Source of the DNA: a virus
Taxonomy: Duplodnaviria > Caudoviricetes
DNA length: 64,000 nucleotides
Strand: one strand, 5' to 3'
Virus record (IMG/VR): IMGVR_UViG_3300020036_004254
Part shown: one piece after another, positions 9,665-55,957 of the stretch
Position numbering within the stretch: the first letter of the stretch is position 1
Layout of the letters: each line of letters begins with the position of its first letter
Made by a program: the position numbers and the translations under genes
Notes under the pieces: model-generated
The model's input: only the letters and a program-made list of their open reading frames with translations
Databases searched by the model: none
What the model was told of the DNA's origin: nothing

Positions 9665-10267
9665 ATGGGCTACAATGCAGGTTCAGATAGGGGCGGAAAA
9701 ATCATTCACGATAGGATGATTGAGCGCATCAAAGAATATGATAAAACCCCGAAGAAATGTAAGGGGTGTGGGTATTCTATAGAATACAAAAAGAGACGGA
9801 ATGATTATTGCTCACATTCTTGTGCCGCTTCTATAACCAACCTCGGAAACAAGAAGTGGGGTGTTTCTCCGGGTAAATGTTGTATATGCGAAAAGAAGGC
9901 GAAAAGAAATTCGTTAACCTGTAGTGATGAATGTAGAAAACAAAGACACTTTGAGGAAAAAAGACTCCCACTGTTTAGGTCTGGTGGAATACATAAAAAT
10001 CGTTCTCTCAAAAAATGTCTTGTATATCTGCATGGGAATTTTTGCACAATATGTGGGTGTGGCGGAAGGCACTATGGGAAAATCTTGGTGTTGCAGATAG
10101 ACCACATAGACGGGAATTCTGATAACAATTTGCCAGACAATCTGCGTCTTTTGTGTCCAAATTGTCACTCTCAAACAGACACGTTTTGCTCTAAAGGCAA
10201 GACACACAAAGAGACAAAAAGAAATAGCTACAACCGAAAACGTAAAGTATCAACTATGGCCACGTAG
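9665..10267 (+). CDS. HNH homing endonuclease
   Basis: LQIDHIDG..DNN...NLRLLCPNCH; N-terminal Cys clusters; TATAAATA at 9628. Confidence 0.9.
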   Translation: MGYNAGSDRGGKIIHDRMIERIKEYDKTPKKCKGCGYSIEYKKRRNDYCSHSCAASITNLGNKKWGVSPGKCCICEKKAKRNSLTCSDECRKQRHFEEKRLPLFRSGGIHKNRSLKKCLVYLHGNFCTICGCGGRHYGKILVLQIDHIDGNSDNNLPDNLRLLCPNCHSQTDTFCSKGKTHKETKRNSYNRKRKVSTMAT

Positions 10268-17398: not shown

Positions 17399-17435
17399 GG
17401 GATTTCCTGATTTACGCATTATGGGATTTGGAACG

Positions 17436-17463
17436 GGCCATCTAATGAAGGGTGGCCTTTTTC
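17436..17463 (+). terminator. intrinsic terminator
   Basis: GGCCATCT/GGGTGGCC hairpin followed by a T-run. Confidence 0.6.
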
Positions 17464-17637
17464 GTTCCTGCCCTTGACAAATGAATACCCACCCCCTAGT
17501 ATTCCTTTCGTGAAGGCGACGAAGACAGATTCTCACACCCGACGAATCTCTGGTCCTCTACCCCTTGACAAACAATAGCAGGGTGGTTATCATTACCTTG
17601 CAAACGTGAAACACCAAACCCACTTTAGGAGGTACAC

Positions 17638-17910
17638 ATGTCGTTCAAGTCGCTTCAGGTCGTTCGTCTCACCGAGAAGGTCCGTAACACCAAGGGTCAT
17701 TTCGTCCCGGTTGGTTCCCGCGTGGTCGTGGTCAACCAGAAGGAGGATGTCGTGAAGGCTCGCTACGGCACTTCCAAGGCCGACTACCGCTACATTGAGG
17801 CCCCGGCCTCGGTCTTCGTCGCGTCGAAGCGCGGTCGTCCGCTTGGCAGTGGCAAGAAGAACTCCGAGAACGTCACGACCGTGACCGCTGGGGTTCCCGC
17901 CGAGGGCTAA
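17638..17910 (+). CDS. small basic protein with AT-hook-like KRGRP motif
   Basis: TTGACA-TATCAT promoter; AGGAGG RBS; strongly biased codons. Confidence 0.8.
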   Translation: MSFKSLQVVRLTEKVRNTKGHFVPVGSRVVVVNQKEDVVKARYGTSKADYRYIEAPASVFVASKRGRPLGSGKKNSENVTTVTAGVPAEG

Positions 17911-17918
17911 GAAAACAT

Positions 17919-18006
17919 GAGGGGTGTAGGGAGAGTTGGGAGTCGCGCTCCAACCAGTACCGATATGAGAAATCAATGGGGGTTCAAGTCCCTCCATCCC
18001 CCACCA
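17919..18006 (+). ncRNA. tRNA-like RNA with encoded CCA and no canonical anticodon arm
   Basis: T-arm GGGGG-TTCAAGT-CCCTC; acceptor-like stem; ACCA end. Confidence 0.6.
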
Positions 18007-18010
18007 GTTT

Positions 18011-18591
18011 GTACACAAGTAGTAGACCTAACAATGACTAGACAACAAGGCGAAACCCGGAGATACCCGTATGGCGGCTAAGGCCGGGAAGTAGTCTGGG
18101 CGAGAGTCTTAAATGTGCAGACCAAATAAATGCTGGCCACTTTCAGCGTACATACTAGTTGACTGACGGTGGTGACTCATCTAAATTGCTATGTTACGTG
18201 AGATTCGTAACGAGGGATTGTTGTCACTTGTGTACTGCTATACCCCTTGAACCGTAACTGGGGAGAGGGCGACCAATGGCCCGAGTGGAACCAGCCTACG
18301 CAACATGCTTCAAGGCGCGTAGCAAGCTGACCACATTAAAATCTCGCCAAAGGCTGAAGCTGTGCCGGGTCCGTAATGAAAAAGGTGGAAAGGACCGATG
18401 CACAAGATGATACGAACGGTAACCTCGCCCACACCTCCGAATTCCATCGGGAATCATCTAGAAACGGAAACCATTGCTCCAATCAGCCGTCCAAAACGAA
18501 AAATCCGGCAGTTTGCGGACTGTCGGACTAGGCAGGGATACCCAGTACATTCCGCGTGGACTGGTGTGTAGGTTCGAATCCTACGGGAGCA
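18011..18591 (+). ncRNA. large ornate ncRNA candidate ending in a tRNA-like domain
   Basis: no ORF; >10 helices including long-range ones; 3' T-arm GTAGG-TTCGAAT-CCTAC with TGCTCC/GGAGCA stem. Confidence 0.7.
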
Positions 18592-18594
18592 GTT

Positions 18595-18684
18595 GAGGTG
18601 TTGGGACACGCGAATATTCTAGTATTGCCTAGACCCCTCGACCACATTTGTGGCGGAATTATCCCCGAGTCCCACACCCACCTC
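18595..18684 (+). ncRNA. putative small structured RNA
   Basis: GAGGTG/CACCTC and TGGGAC/GTCCCA nested closure with internal hairpins. Confidence 0.45.
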
Positions 18685-19193
18685 TTTACATTTCACACCG
18701 GAGCAAACATGTTTGGCTTTCGGATTTTTGCCATTTCAGTTCTGGTGTTTTCGTTGGTGTCCCACCTGAGCAAGCGTTGAAATGATTGCTGGATGCTACG
18801 TAGTCCATGTATATTGCGATTCTGAGCTTCACGATTCATCCTCGTTTTGTTCTTTTAAACAGCTACATGAGTTTACCGGGGAAACTTACCGTGAGGCGTG
18901 GAAAAAGGCAAGAGAGTACGGCTGGTCAACCAAAAAGGTTGATGGTAAAACAATTCAGTTGTGTAAACAATGTCTAGAGGGAGGATTGTACTAATGCGTC
19001 TAAATGAGACAAATCCTGTTCGTGTTGAGAGTGCTATCGCCAAAAGTGGAATTAGCGATATGCGCGAGGTGGCTGAAATCGCCGCTGATTTCTTGAACGA
19101 CACCTATTGGAATGACCCAAAGTGCGCTGGCCGTCGAATCCGGGCGTGTGGTGGAGATTCTGCACGGTTTTTTGATTCACTGCCTGAGGTGGA

Positions 19194-19481
19194 GTGGTGA
19201 CTTCTATTATTCGAGCGTTCAAACGAAAACGTCCACCCGGATTGCGTACAGAGTATAACATAACCCTTTCGTGTGGACATTGGTTCCCGTTTGTTCATTT
19301 TGAAACTGACCCAACAGGACAAGAGTATCACTGTAAGGATTGTGAACGCTATGCGGGGTTGGTTTGTAGAGAATGTGGAAAACCTGCATGGAAAGAGTGT
19401 AATATTTTTTCCACGTTTGGTTTTCTCTGTGGAGAACTTTTGTGTATAGATTGTAAAGGGACACACCCTCATCGCCCTTGA
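19194..19481 (+). CDS. hypothetical Zn-finger protein
   Basis: L.CGH and multiple CxxC. Confidence 0.55.
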   Translation: MVTSIIRAFKRKRPPGLRTEYNITLSCGHWFPFVHFETDPTGQEYHCKDCERYAGLVCRECGKPAWKECNIFSTFGFLCGELLCIDCKGTHPHRP

Positions 19482-19535
19482 CAAACCCCCATACCACACT
19501 TATCATTCGGTATACCCCACACCCAACGAGGTTTC

Positions 19536-35334: not shown

Positions 35335-35405
35335 GTCAGGCAATAGCATAAACGGTAATGCGCCCCGTGAGAGGGGAGATTGGGGTTCGAATCCCCGGCT
35401 TGTCT
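35335..35405 (+). ncRNA. tRNA-like RNA with shrunken anticodon arm
   Basis: D arm GCAT/ATGC; T arm TGGGG-TTCGAAT-CCCCG; central CCCC-GTGAGA-GGGG. Confidence 0.55.
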
Positions 35406-51844: not shown

Positions 51845-52383
51845 ATGGAATCAAGAAAAGAAATAACATCTGCGTCAGAAAAATTGTTTTTTGCTAGGTT
51901 AATGCCGTAGGCAACAAACTGAACGTTCCCCTGAATGTAACCTTTAGAAGAATCGATTCTATCCAAAGAAGCAGAAGTCAACCCCATTTTCTCCCCATTT
52001 TTTTGAAGTGTTATTGGGACGTTTGACAAGCTACACCTTTCAGTCCATATAGATTGAAGATATTCTTCCGTAAGTTCAGAAAACGTATTACACGAATCGA
52101 AAGGAAGCCCGTCTTTAAACTTCCGGTTTCTAGCTTTTCTTAAGATGTATGTGAACTTTCCTTTTTTCTTTCCGGGTCTTCCGGTGTTAAATTTTTGTAG
52201 TCTTTTGATATTTCTAAGTACCTCTTCGCTTGTTCTGTTTTTCAATCGAAACGTCGAAGCACAAGACAAGGAACAAAAGAACGTTGTGCGTCCTTTTTTG
52301 GTCTGACGGTTATATTCCCCGTTTATATACCAAAAAGATTTTGAACAAACGCCGCAGTTGAGTTGTATGTGAGTTTTTGACAT
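51811..52383 (-). CDS. His-Me-finger (HNH-type) endonuclease
   Basis: C..C...FCS..C N-terminus; SLDRIDSSKGY..GNVQ.V....N..K; true start MSKTH at 52383. Confidence 0.8.
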   Translation of the reverse strand: MSKTHIQLNCGVCSKSFWYINGEYNRQTKKGRTTFFCSLSCASTFRLKNRTSEEVLRNIKRLQKFNTGRPGKKKGKFTYILRKARNRKFKDGLPFDSCNTFSELTEEYLQSIWTERCSLSNVPITLQKNGEKMGLTSASLDRIDSSKGYIQGNVQFVAYGINLAKNNFSDADVISFLDSIHTSRFKSNSA

Positions 52384-52400
52384 GTTGGATGATAGTAAAA

Positions 52401-52666
52401 TGTTTTGCAGAAAGGTTTCTTGGACGGGAGATTCGAAGCTCCCCGCCTCCATTCTGTTTATACCGTCTACATTTTGTTTTCGGGGGCGAAATGGATTCGA
52501 CAGGGAATTAAGTACACCAAAACCGCTATCCGAAAAGGCGAAGGGCCGTAAGCCCTAGCGAAAACTTAAAGGAGAATAACAACTATTCGACCTTGCTTCT
52601 TTCTGGTGCGCTTCAAGCCGCCTAAGGAAACTGAGCATCGCCCACTTGGAAACAGAACGGGCAATC
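52401..52666 (+). ncRNA. ssrA: circularly permuted two-piece tmRNA
   Basis: acceptor piece ...CGCCTCCA (52451) precedes coding piece GGGGGCGAAATGGATTCGAC (52482); G3.U70; tag ENNNYSTLLLSGALQAA* at 52572-52625. Confidence 0.9.
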
Positions 52667-52698
52667 CTTCTCGGCATATCTTCGGGTGTGCCGAGAAG
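52667..52698 (+). terminator. stable hairpin downstream of tmRNA
   Basis: CTTCTCGGCATATC-TTCG-GGTGTGCCGAGAAG. Confidence 0.7.
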
Positions 52699-52774
52699 TT
52701 CTCGTTTGGGGGGTTGACAAGCCATGGCAGACCGACTACATTTCTTACATGAACCCCTTACCAAAGGAGTGACA

Positions 52775-54369: not shown

Positions 54370-54950
54370 GTCCGTTCAAGGCATATGAAATGTACATGCA
54401 TCTGAAGTTACATTTCACTTCGGATACATACGATGTACGTAAGTACCCCATGAAAAGAATGTCGGTGACCTCGTTTGAAAAGGGTACGATTAAGTTTAAA
54501 TTGTTCAAGCTGACGCAGAAATATAATGATATTCAGCTTCGGGAGTACTTTATTGCTAACTTCTTGAACGGTGATAAATACGGTGGGATGTATAATGCCA
54601 ATGCAGACGAGGTTTTATTGGATTGGCAAAAGCGCGTTCAGGGCTTGACATACCACTACAGACAGGATATATTGCATCTTCAGGAACAAGGGGTTGAAAC
54701 TCCTGATATGGCTTGGTCTGGTGACAGCCATCCCCTTCTCGCCAAGGAATATTTGGGTAAGCGCATCAATTTGGAAACCCTTGTCATCCTCGACAAACTA
54801 TTTAATTTTCGGCCCGTGGTCGATAAGCGTTTGACGGATGATTTTATGTGGAATCCGATTTCTAAGTTGATGTACAAATACGAACCATTCCTTACGTTTA
54901 ACAAGGAAGATTTTTTGGAGGCGACCAAAAGAGTCTTCGCACCCCGGTGA
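54366..54950 (+). CDS. helicase loader (T4 gp59-like)
   Basis: Y..LKLHF....YD..KY, HP.L...L...I..ETL.IL, KY.PF; lies before gp32. Confidence 0.85.
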   Translation: MSPFKAYEMYMHLKLHFTSDTYDVRKYPMKRMSVTSFEKGTIKFKLFKLTQKYNDIQLREYFIANFLNGDKYGGMYNANADEVLLDWQKRVQGLTYHYRQDILHLQEQGVETPDMAWSGDSHPLLAKEYLGKRINLETLVILDKLFNFRPVVDKRLTDDFMWNPISKLMYKYEPFLTFNKEDFLEATKRVFAPR

Positions 54951-55027
54951 GAACATCTTTTGTTATGGTTGGACCATTGTTCATACACCGTTATATACCG
55001 TTATACACCGCAAAAAAGGAGCTACAC

Positions 55028-55957
55028 ATGTTTACCAGTTTGAGAGAAATGCGTAACAAGGGCAGTGATTTGTCCAGTTTGGTCAAGCAGGTCGAAGACA
55101 CGACCAAGAAGAGTTACGAGAAGGAAGAAGAGGGTACGTTTTGGTCCCCTCCGGTAGATAAAGCAGGAAATGGTATTGCCATTATCCGCTTTATGCCAGC
55201 CCCCAAGGGGGAAGACGCCGAGTTCGTTCGCCGTTGGGACCACGGATTTCAGGGTCCGACAGGCAAGTGGTACATTGAGAATTCTCTGACCACGCTTGGC
55301 CCGGATTTCAAAGACCCTGTCTCTGAAGACAACAGCCGCCTGTGGGCACTTGACACCACAGATGACGGCCCAAACCGCAAGATTGCGCGTGAGCGCAAGC
55401 GTCGGTTGAACCACTATTCGAACATTTTGGTCATCAAAGACCCAGCCCGTCCGGAGAACGAGGGCAAGGTGTTCTTGTTCAAGTACGGCGTGAAAATCTT
55501 TGACAAGATTAAGAGCGCGTTGAAGCCACCCGTTGAGGGAATGGCGACATTCAACCCTTTCAACTTGTTCACGGGTGCGAATTTCCAGTTGGTGGTGTGC
55601 AATGTTGCCAAGCGTCGAAACTACGACCAGAGCATGTTCCTTGCTCCGGGTGAAATCCTCGGACCTGATGGCAAGCCCTACTCTGACGATAAGTTGGATG
55701 AGTTGTGGAACCAGTGCCGCTCGCTCAAGGATTTCCTTGATGCTAGACACTTCAAGTCTTACGAAGTGCTGAAGAAGCGGTTTGAGTTTGTCACGAACGC
55801 CGCTCCTGCCGCCGTCAGTGCTGGTGTGAAGGAAGAGAAGCAACCAGAACTGAAGAGTGAAGAGCCAAAGAACATGAAGACTTCTACTCCTGTTGAGGTT
55901 GATGAAGACCCAGAGGATACAGAAGAGTACTTCAAGAGCTTGGCGAATCAGGACTAA
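55028..55957 (+). CDS. single-stranded DNA-binding protein (T4 gp32-like)
   Basis: DKAGNG.A.IRF.P, HGFQGP.GKWYIENS.TT, NEGKVFL.KYG.KIFDK, acidic tail. Confidence 0.95.
   Translation: MFTSLREMRNKGSDLSSLVKQVEDTTKKSYEKEEEGTFWSPPVDKAGNGIAIIRFMPAPKGEDAEFVRRWDHGFQGPTGKWYIENSLTTLGPDFKDPVSEDNSRLWALDTTDDGPNRKIARERKRRLNHYSNILVIKDPARPENEGKVFLFKYGVKIFDKIKSALKPPVEGMATFNPFNLFTGANFQLVVCNVAKRRNYDQSMFLAPGEILGPDGKPYSDDKLDELWNQCRSLKDFLDARHFKSYEVLKKRFEFVTNAAPAAVSAGVKEEKQPELKSEEPKNMKTSTPVEVDEDPEDTEEYFKSLANQD

Follow-up and report, generated by a model that had tools for sequence, protein, structure and literature searches.

The DNA analysed here is a stretch of 64,000 nucleotides from an IMG/VR virus record (IMGVR_UViG_3300020036_004254), called the window below, and its source is a T4-like phage. 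It encodes a gp32-type single-strand-binding protein (54947-55957; PF08804) whose best cultured relatives, in Stenotrophomonas phage DLP6, cyanophages and Caulobacter phage Cr30, are 41-49% identical, and ARAGORN reports 17 tRNA genes plus a permuted tmRNA. The same phage is present in at least six JGI metagenome contigs with 99.9-100% identity, across which the region 17900-18800 has a single difference, C/A at 18699. JGI samples that contain the phage at about 100% identity are 3300006056, 3300020046, 3300005664, 3300007232, 3300007235 and 3300020050. Among the 50,697 deposited phage genomes of INPHARED, blastn found no match to positions 17900-18700, and a 677-aa protein of the window likewise has no match among the INPHARED phages.

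Our subject is the stretch 18011-18591, which follows a 90-aa gene and a tRNA-like element, module A, that forms its upstream boundary. From 5' to 3' we divide the stretch into three parts, named X1, X2 and module D (Table 1). No credible open reading frame (ORF) lies in 17911-18781, and the next plausible gene downstream starts at 18782. The initial annotation had described about 580 nt without an ORF, and we agree with this: no stop-to-stop frame inside 18011-18591 exceeds 63 aa, and of six further assemblies of this phage, five have no gene called in the gap. A decayed gene was considered and rejected, as ten six-frame stop-to-stop fragments searched with hmmscan against Pfam and PHROGs gave nothing significant (best E-values 0.03-0.08).

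Table 1. Features of the locus in the window and positions of modules A, B and C in related contigs
Feature	Sequence	Position	Strand	Remarks
Promoter-like site, sigma-70-type	window	17565-17593	+	TTGACA-17-TATCAT, 11/12; 5' of the 90-aa gene
90-aa gene	window	17638-17910		stop at 17910
Module A	window	17921-18006	+	tRNA-like RNA
X1 helix P1a, 5' strand	window	18011-18020	+	10 nt; partner 18226-18235
X1 5' bulge	window	18021-18040	+	20 nt, asymmetric, between P1a and P1b; sequence-conserved
X1 helix P1b, 5' strand	window	18041-18048	+	8 nt; partner 18218-18225
X1 core	window	18049-18217	+	~169 nt, multi-hairpin; inner fold predicted only
X1 3' strand of P1b and P1a	window	18218-18235	+	18 nt, continuous; shuffles, covariation
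X2	window	18236-18473	+	238 nt, ORF-poor; several local hairpins; contains 18332-18348
Module D	window	18474-18592	+	tRNA-like RNA
Module A	L001	9640-9725		
Module A	L055	6255-6330		
Module A	L056	680-770		
Module A	L059	455-545		
Module A	L062	322-405		
Module B	L001	9735-9815		small helix-closed RNA-like element
Module B	L056	875-945		
Module B	L059	550-705		
Module B	L061	742-812		
Module B	L062	418-485		
Module C	L059	713-803		tRNA-like gene; Rfam tRNA 33.5 bits
Module C	L001	~9822-9912		

A terminator-like hairpin (17435-17458) stands just before the promoter-like site at 17565-17593. A site of the same strength does not recur until 19478-19506, and relatives keep this second site just after D. 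Neither a terminator nor a strong promoter is predicted between the parts of the stretch. This layout of promoters implies that the RNA modules are probably co-transcribed with the 90-aa gene in an early transcript.

Downstream of D there is a 23-codon hydrophobic ORF (MFGFRIFAISVLVFSLVSHLSKR, 18710-18781) with GGAG 6 nt upstream, which may encode a small membrane peptide. It is followed by three small genes (70, 76 and 95 aa; 18782-19481) between D and the promoter of a downstream ATPase gene; the 95-aa product of the third is Cys-rich and zinc-finger-like. These three genes, absent in the related contigs L056 and L061 where D adjoins the promoter, are a further module-sized indel at the locus. 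We also note that position 1 of the window is the exact start of three independent metagenome contigs of the same phage (L093, L094 and L095), and this common start base suggests that assemblies break there at a repeat or a genome end.

Related loci and the tRNA-like modules

Relatives of the locus were traced by two routes. The downstream 303-aa ATPase led to L001, whose protein is 71% identical, and the upstream 90-aa protein led to nine related proteins and seven contigs with DNA. In the ATPase-linked loci (one IMG/VR relative and 53 metagenome loci) neither X1 nor X2 was found. Relatives found through the 90-aa gene have the order A, then B, C and sometimes D, again without X1 and X2. In all relatives traced by either route, only 276-598 nt separate the 90-aa gene from the gene that follows, against 870 nt in the window. 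The window has A and D; where B and C would stand, its 463 nt (18011-18473) resemble none of these relatives.

Module A has an acceptor-like stem, a T arm and, in the window, an encoded ACCA end; one hairpin and a mini-hairpin take the place of the D and anticodon arms. The module is conserved in L001, L055, L056-58, L059 and L062, with central hairpin arms that vary by lineage (TTGG/CCAA, ACAG/CTGT, GTGG/CCAC). Its Rfam matches are weak (tRNA, 27.8 bits in L057; tRNA-Sec, 16.2 bits in the window), and ARAGORN does not call it.

Modules B and C are both absent from the window. B, an element of variable length, has a closing helix (GTGTTGGGCT/AGCCAACA) and contains a conserved inner hairpin (GAGGCGTC...ACGCCT); the L059 copy has a ~100-nt insertion in its distal part. 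The anticodon region of C is 33 nt long, with a 7-bp stem and a 15-nt loop; ARAGORN does not call C in L001, and it could be an intron-containing or a non-decoding tRNA.

Module D is found among these relatives only in L056-58 and L061, directly 5' of the ATPase promoter. The tRNA-like 3' end that the initial annotation placed at 18475-18591 proved to be real: the T arm (18568-18584) has the stem GTAGG/CCTAC and the loop TTCGAAT, six base pairs join 18475-18480 to 18586-18591 in an acceptor-like stem, and the homologues in L056, L057, L058 and L061 (blastn 1e-7 to 4e-8, nhmmer 1e-4) carry compensatory changes. In the acceptor-like stem these are UGCUCC/GGAGCA versus CGUCUC/GAGACG, and in the anticodon-like stem T-A in the window versus A-T in relatives and T-A in L061 versus C-G in L056. 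The body of D has a ~50-nt insertion in the D-arm region and a long anticodon-like stem without a normal loop, no CCA is encoded, and D does not form a normal cloverleaf; ARAGORN and Rfam RF00005 report no tRNA at 18474-18592. Its folding z-score is -2.1.

Phage T4 has two annotated small stable RNAs, rnaC and rnaD (species 1 and 2), at the end of its tRNA cluster (NC_000866, 70908-71171). T4 rnaC (139 nt) has an enlarged body and ends with a canonical T arm and then a strand complementary to its 5' end; D and A have the same architecture. D shares no sequence with rnaC beyond the 11-nt T loop. Informally, an RNA with a T arm, a terminal acceptor-like stem and an enlarged body in a phage tRNA cluster may be called species-1-like, and D would qualify by architecture only. 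X1 differs in having no T arm, and it has no counterpart in the T4 tRNA region. The array described here is also longer than that of T4 and differs between close relatives.

X1 and its homologue in a distant phage

X1 is 225 nt long (18011-18235) and is closed by a stalk in which two 5' segments form 18 perfect Watson-Crick pairs (10+8) with one continuous 3' strand. The initial annotation had already paired the segments at 18011 and 18041 with 18218-18235, and the pairing is exact. None of 300 dinucleotide shuffles gave an 18-bp stalk, and the shuffle maximum of 17 was seen once. The folding energy of X1 (18007-18240) is no better than that of shuffles (z = -1.3).

An exact-pattern scan of IMG/VR with a 24-nt loop sequence of X1 returned one contig, L069 (record G002, 98 kb, about 45% complete). 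A core 17-mer scanned against IMG/VR led to L069 again, and a stalk 22-mer had no match there. The four loci from an IMG/VR 16-mer scan (L077-L080) were dismissed as unrelated chance matches. A 20-mer scan of bacterial genomes gave seven loci whose 20-nt matches lack flanking similarity and are likewise chance; five of these have near-identical flanks and are apparently the same locus in related, mostly Rhodanobacter, genomes.

The minus strand of L069 holds a dense array of 20 tRNA genes, and the X1 homologue lies on the tRNA strand, 1 nt after tRNA-His and ~200 nt before tRNA-Tyr. In both phages the 5' end of X1 is 0-4 nt from the 3' end of the preceding tRNA or tRNA-like element, and downstream of X1 comes the tRNA-like D after ~240 nt in the window and a true tRNA after ~200 nt in L069. 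The rest of the 5.8-kb L069 locus resembles the window in tRNA genes only (76-82%), and G002 and the window have a handful of proteins in common, with 29-47% identity for full-length matches. When the sequence 18011-18473 was compared with two whole records, it matched that of L069 in its X1 part alone and that of L001 nowhere. The 200 nt between X1 and tRNA-Tyr in L069 (4926-5126, minus strand) fold with z = -2.6 into several strong hairpins and may be another array-embedded structured RNA.

The two X1 sequences match at ~92% identity. In the core 161 of 169 positions agree, and in the bulge (20-21 nt) 17 of 21 aligned positions do, against just 16 of the 38 positions in the stalk strands. 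Pairing is perfect in both stalks, 10+8 bp in the window and 11+8 bp in L069. RNAalifold and a direct pair count agree that 10 of the 19 stalk pairs are changed on both sides and that none is broken; controls with slid partners gave 0-3. In P1a the 5' strand of L069 is an unrelated 11-nt sequence that pairs equally perfectly, and in P1b five of eight pairs are changed on both sides. Covariation in a second phage therefore bears out the interrupted helix that the initial annotation had singled out.

Eight substitutions fall in the X1 core, two of them inside a predicted inner helix. The one-sided substitutions at columns 157 and 167 keep their predicted pairs as G-C/G-U on the + strand only, and in the hairpin GTCTG/CAGAC a C-to-T change is kept as G-U. 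Since the change from G-C to G-U is tolerated only on the tRNA-coding strand, the changes speak for structure at the RNA rather than the DNA level. The inner fold of the core is otherwise invariant between the two sequences, so that covariation has no bearing on it and it stands as a fold prediction.

A covariance model (R1) built from the two X1 sequences gives them 274-286 bits, by construction, and found no third copy in ~0.54 Mb of sequence that takes in the related loci, the tRNA region of T4 and two entire IMG/VR records. No extra copies or repeats of X1 occur within the window, and the window and L069 each have one copy per genome. In both members a conserved 5' bulge of 20-21 nt divides the terminal helix of 18-19 bp into 10-11 + 8, the helix encloses a conserved core of ~170 nt, and the RNA lies in a phage tRNA array on the same strand as the tRNAs. 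This comparison of sequences strongly supports the view that X1 is a genuine structured RNA that would found a new, two-member family. X1 matches no Rfam family and is a previously undescribed RNA.

The 95% identity of the core, helices included, could result from recent transfer rather than constraint, and this reading fits poorly with the saturated divergence of P1b between two conserved segments. One might go further and regard X1 as a MITE-like or palindrome-associated mobile DNA element without RNA function, whose inverted repeats mimic a helix. It does have perfect inverted repeats at its ends, and it is absent from the closest relatives while being ~92% identical in a distant phage. We nevertheless find this very unlikely. 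The variable 8-nt P1b strand lies between the conserved bulge and core, so the differing arms are not pre-existing target-site sequence; each genome has a single copy and no target-site duplication is visible; the one-sided changes allow G-U pairs only on the strand of the tRNAs; and the orientation and position of X1 in the tRNA arrays are conserved.

Between two very distant phages, then, the X1 stalk covaries fully and the core barely changes, which argues for a sequence-specific activity. More particularly, the near-invariant core suggests that X1 may bind a partner or act in a sequence-specific manner, and its constant placement in tRNA arrays points to a possible link to tRNA or translation biology. 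The small size of X1, 225 nt, makes probing, pull-downs and structural studies feasible.

We compared the locus with Rfam 15 on two scales, the whole window at the gathering threshold and the intervals 17600-19000, 18005-18240 and 18230-18480 at E <= 10. The initial annotation had named GOLLD, ROOL, RNase P and group I/II introns as the families against which the stretch should be checked, and none of them was matched. The GOLLD and ROOL models found nothing in the whole window at the gathering threshold or in the three intervals at E <= 10, and at E <= 10 the stretch has no match to RNase P RNA, group I/II introns, tmRNA, 6S RNA, SRP RNA or self-cleaving ribozymes. The matches seen at E <= 10 were tRNA-Sec (16.2 bits, on A), RT-6, ftsZ-DE and cHP, all far below gathering scores. 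The RT-6 motif (RF03027) at 18190-18231, a hairpin followed by GGGAUUGUUGUCA, was rejected as chance with 15.9 bits against a gathering score of 46.7 and E = 2; its matched tail is the P1b 3' strand, which is different in L069, and the scanned neighbour ORFs include no reverse-transcriptase family.

One RNA or separate modules

The initial annotation saw in the whole stretch a single giant ornate RNA with long-range pseudoknots, and at the same time left open whether it was one RNA or two. Its broader reading as a non-coding structured RNA agrees with our results, given the lack of a coding signal, the covarying X1 stalk and the compensatory changes in the D homologues. The single giant RNA is not supported. 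X1 occurs in L069 without X2 and D, and D occurs in L056 and L061 without X1 and X2; as X1 and D are each found without the other parts in other phages, a composite of modules is the simplest reading, and leaving the number of RNAs open was correct. We think it probable that A, X1, X2 and D are independent RNA modules lined up in the early tRNA/RNA region of this T4-like phage, and that X1 is a new structured RNA. Modular evolution is by itself compatible with the modules working as one RNA in this phage.

X2 has no homologue in the relatives, in L069 or in IMG/VR pattern scans with two X2 18-mers, and it has no homology to the 200 nt that follow X1 in L069. Rfam 15 gave no meaningful match at E <= 10 (18230-18480), and X2 folds no better than shuffles (18236-18476, z = -1.0). 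For the whole stretch (594 nt) z is -0.8, a weak thermodynamic signal.

Two long-range pairings had been proposed. The first joins the X1 loop 18099-18117 to 18332-18348 in X2. A duplex of 7+6 bp can indeed form there, with -18.2 kcal/mol, and this part of the proposal stands. Its significance is borderline: 30 of 500 shuffled targets (p ~0.06) and one of 109 other genomic chunks gave equal or better partners for the loop. The loop is 100% conserved in L069, and no comparable partner was found there within 700-800 nt on either side of X1, so the candidate pseudoknot partner is not conserved. The second pairing, AGGTG with CACCT at ~18432, is 5 bp long, as expected by chance, and we have dropped it.

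GOLLD and ROOL are phage or prophage non-coding RNAs that often lie beside tRNA islands and are perhaps co-transcribed with tRNAs (Weinberg et al. 2017, PMC5737381; Kretsch et al., doi 10.1101/2024.12.08.627333), and a linker of GOLLD RNAs can contain tRNAs (Kretsch et al.). Like GOLLD, the stretch lies in a phage near tRNA genes, and it is flanked by tRNA-like modules. This likeness speaks for X1, X2 and D as one GOLLD/ROOL-like ornate RNA of ~580 nt with long-range pairings and a covalently attached tRNA-like domain, as do the contiguous, ORF-free sequence without an internal predicted terminator or strong promoter, and a loop duplex that only one of 109 genomic chunks could better. We regard such a molecule as improbable in view of the separate occurrence of X1 and D, the identical L069 loop without a partner together with the shuffle result, an X2 that lacks homologues and a folding signal, the absence of a GOLLD or ROOL match at E <= 10, and the low z-score of the whole stretch. 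[quoted passage not shown] X1, the only part that has comparative support, is shorter at ~225 nt: ROOL RNAs average ~580 nt, and many GOLLD RNAs exceed 800 nt.

A bolder reading sees in X1 the conserved core, for catalysis or assembly, of phage RNAs of a new class (a ribozyme, or a self-assembling or tRNA-capturing RNA) that would act on the surrounding tRNA array and, in this phage, would have recruited X2 and D into a larger ornate RNA. We hold this to be quite improbable; if true, the near-invariant 170-nt core would be under a sequence constraint like that of rRNA or RNase P RNA, in phages whose proteins are just 29-47% identical.

The converse reading would leave only X1 and D functional, most of the stretch and X2 especially being non-functional spacer or decay from array rearrangement, possibly with a gene for a 44-aa peptide. 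X2, with no homologue, Rfam match or folding signal, suits this reading, as do the module-sized insertions and deletions at the locus in every relative. A 44-aa ORF does lie inside X2 (18276-18410), with a purine-rich run (GGGGAGAGGG) a few bases 5' of its ATG at 18276; against it, a search of 5.8 billion proteins gave no relative of this ORF. The identity of the stretch across at least six metagenome assemblies is uninformative either way. We judge the spacer reading unlikely, and it is compatible with the modular explanation and overlaps it.

If the modules are separate, a plausible course of expression can be outlined, largely by analogy. One early transcript from the 17565 promoter would contain the 90-aa gene and then A, X1, X2 and D. 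By analogy with the processing of tRNA clusters, A and D might act as handles for the host enzymes that process tRNAs. RNase P cleavage would then generate the 5' terminus of D, and that of X1 would be set free as A is matured at its 3' end. The X1 stalk could then be a processing or insulating stalk of the rRNA type, selected for pairing and free in sequence, around a core selected for its sequence, and X1, once released, might persist as a stable RNA and bind a factor of the host or the phage.

Bacterial rRNA precursor stalks and T7 RNase III sites have a long terminal helix, formed from 5' and 3' flanks, around a sequence-conserved RNA. In rRNA-type stalks the pairing alone is conserved, and the T7 sites have an asymmetric internal loop. 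Known RNase III sites have smaller internal loops than the conserved 20-nt bulge of X1, and cleavage of the X1 stalk is suggested only by analogy.

Phage tRNA islands are already known to harbour structured non-coding RNAs, among them GOLLD, ROOL and the T4 stable RNAs, and X1 is a compact, well-delimited addition to them. The array at this locus evolves by the exchange of entire RNA modules between tRNA-like handles that stay fixed, and it follows that large "ornate" candidates read from a single sequence may be composites.

Three further genes of the tRNA and tmRNA kind deserve mention. ARAGORN reports two odd tRNA-like genes, one in the window (35335-35405) with a 2-nt "anticodon" and one in L069 (2963-3058) with a 4-nt anticodon (acca). 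The permuted (two-piece) tmRNA gene of the window lies at 52361-52716, where ARAGORN gives it as tmRNA* with the tag ENNNYSTLLLSGALQAA, and it matches Rfam RF04321 with 89.5 bits (52391-52625). Permuted tmRNAs are typical of alpha-proteobacteria, some beta-proteobacteria and cyanobacteria, and this gene may be a hint at the phage host.
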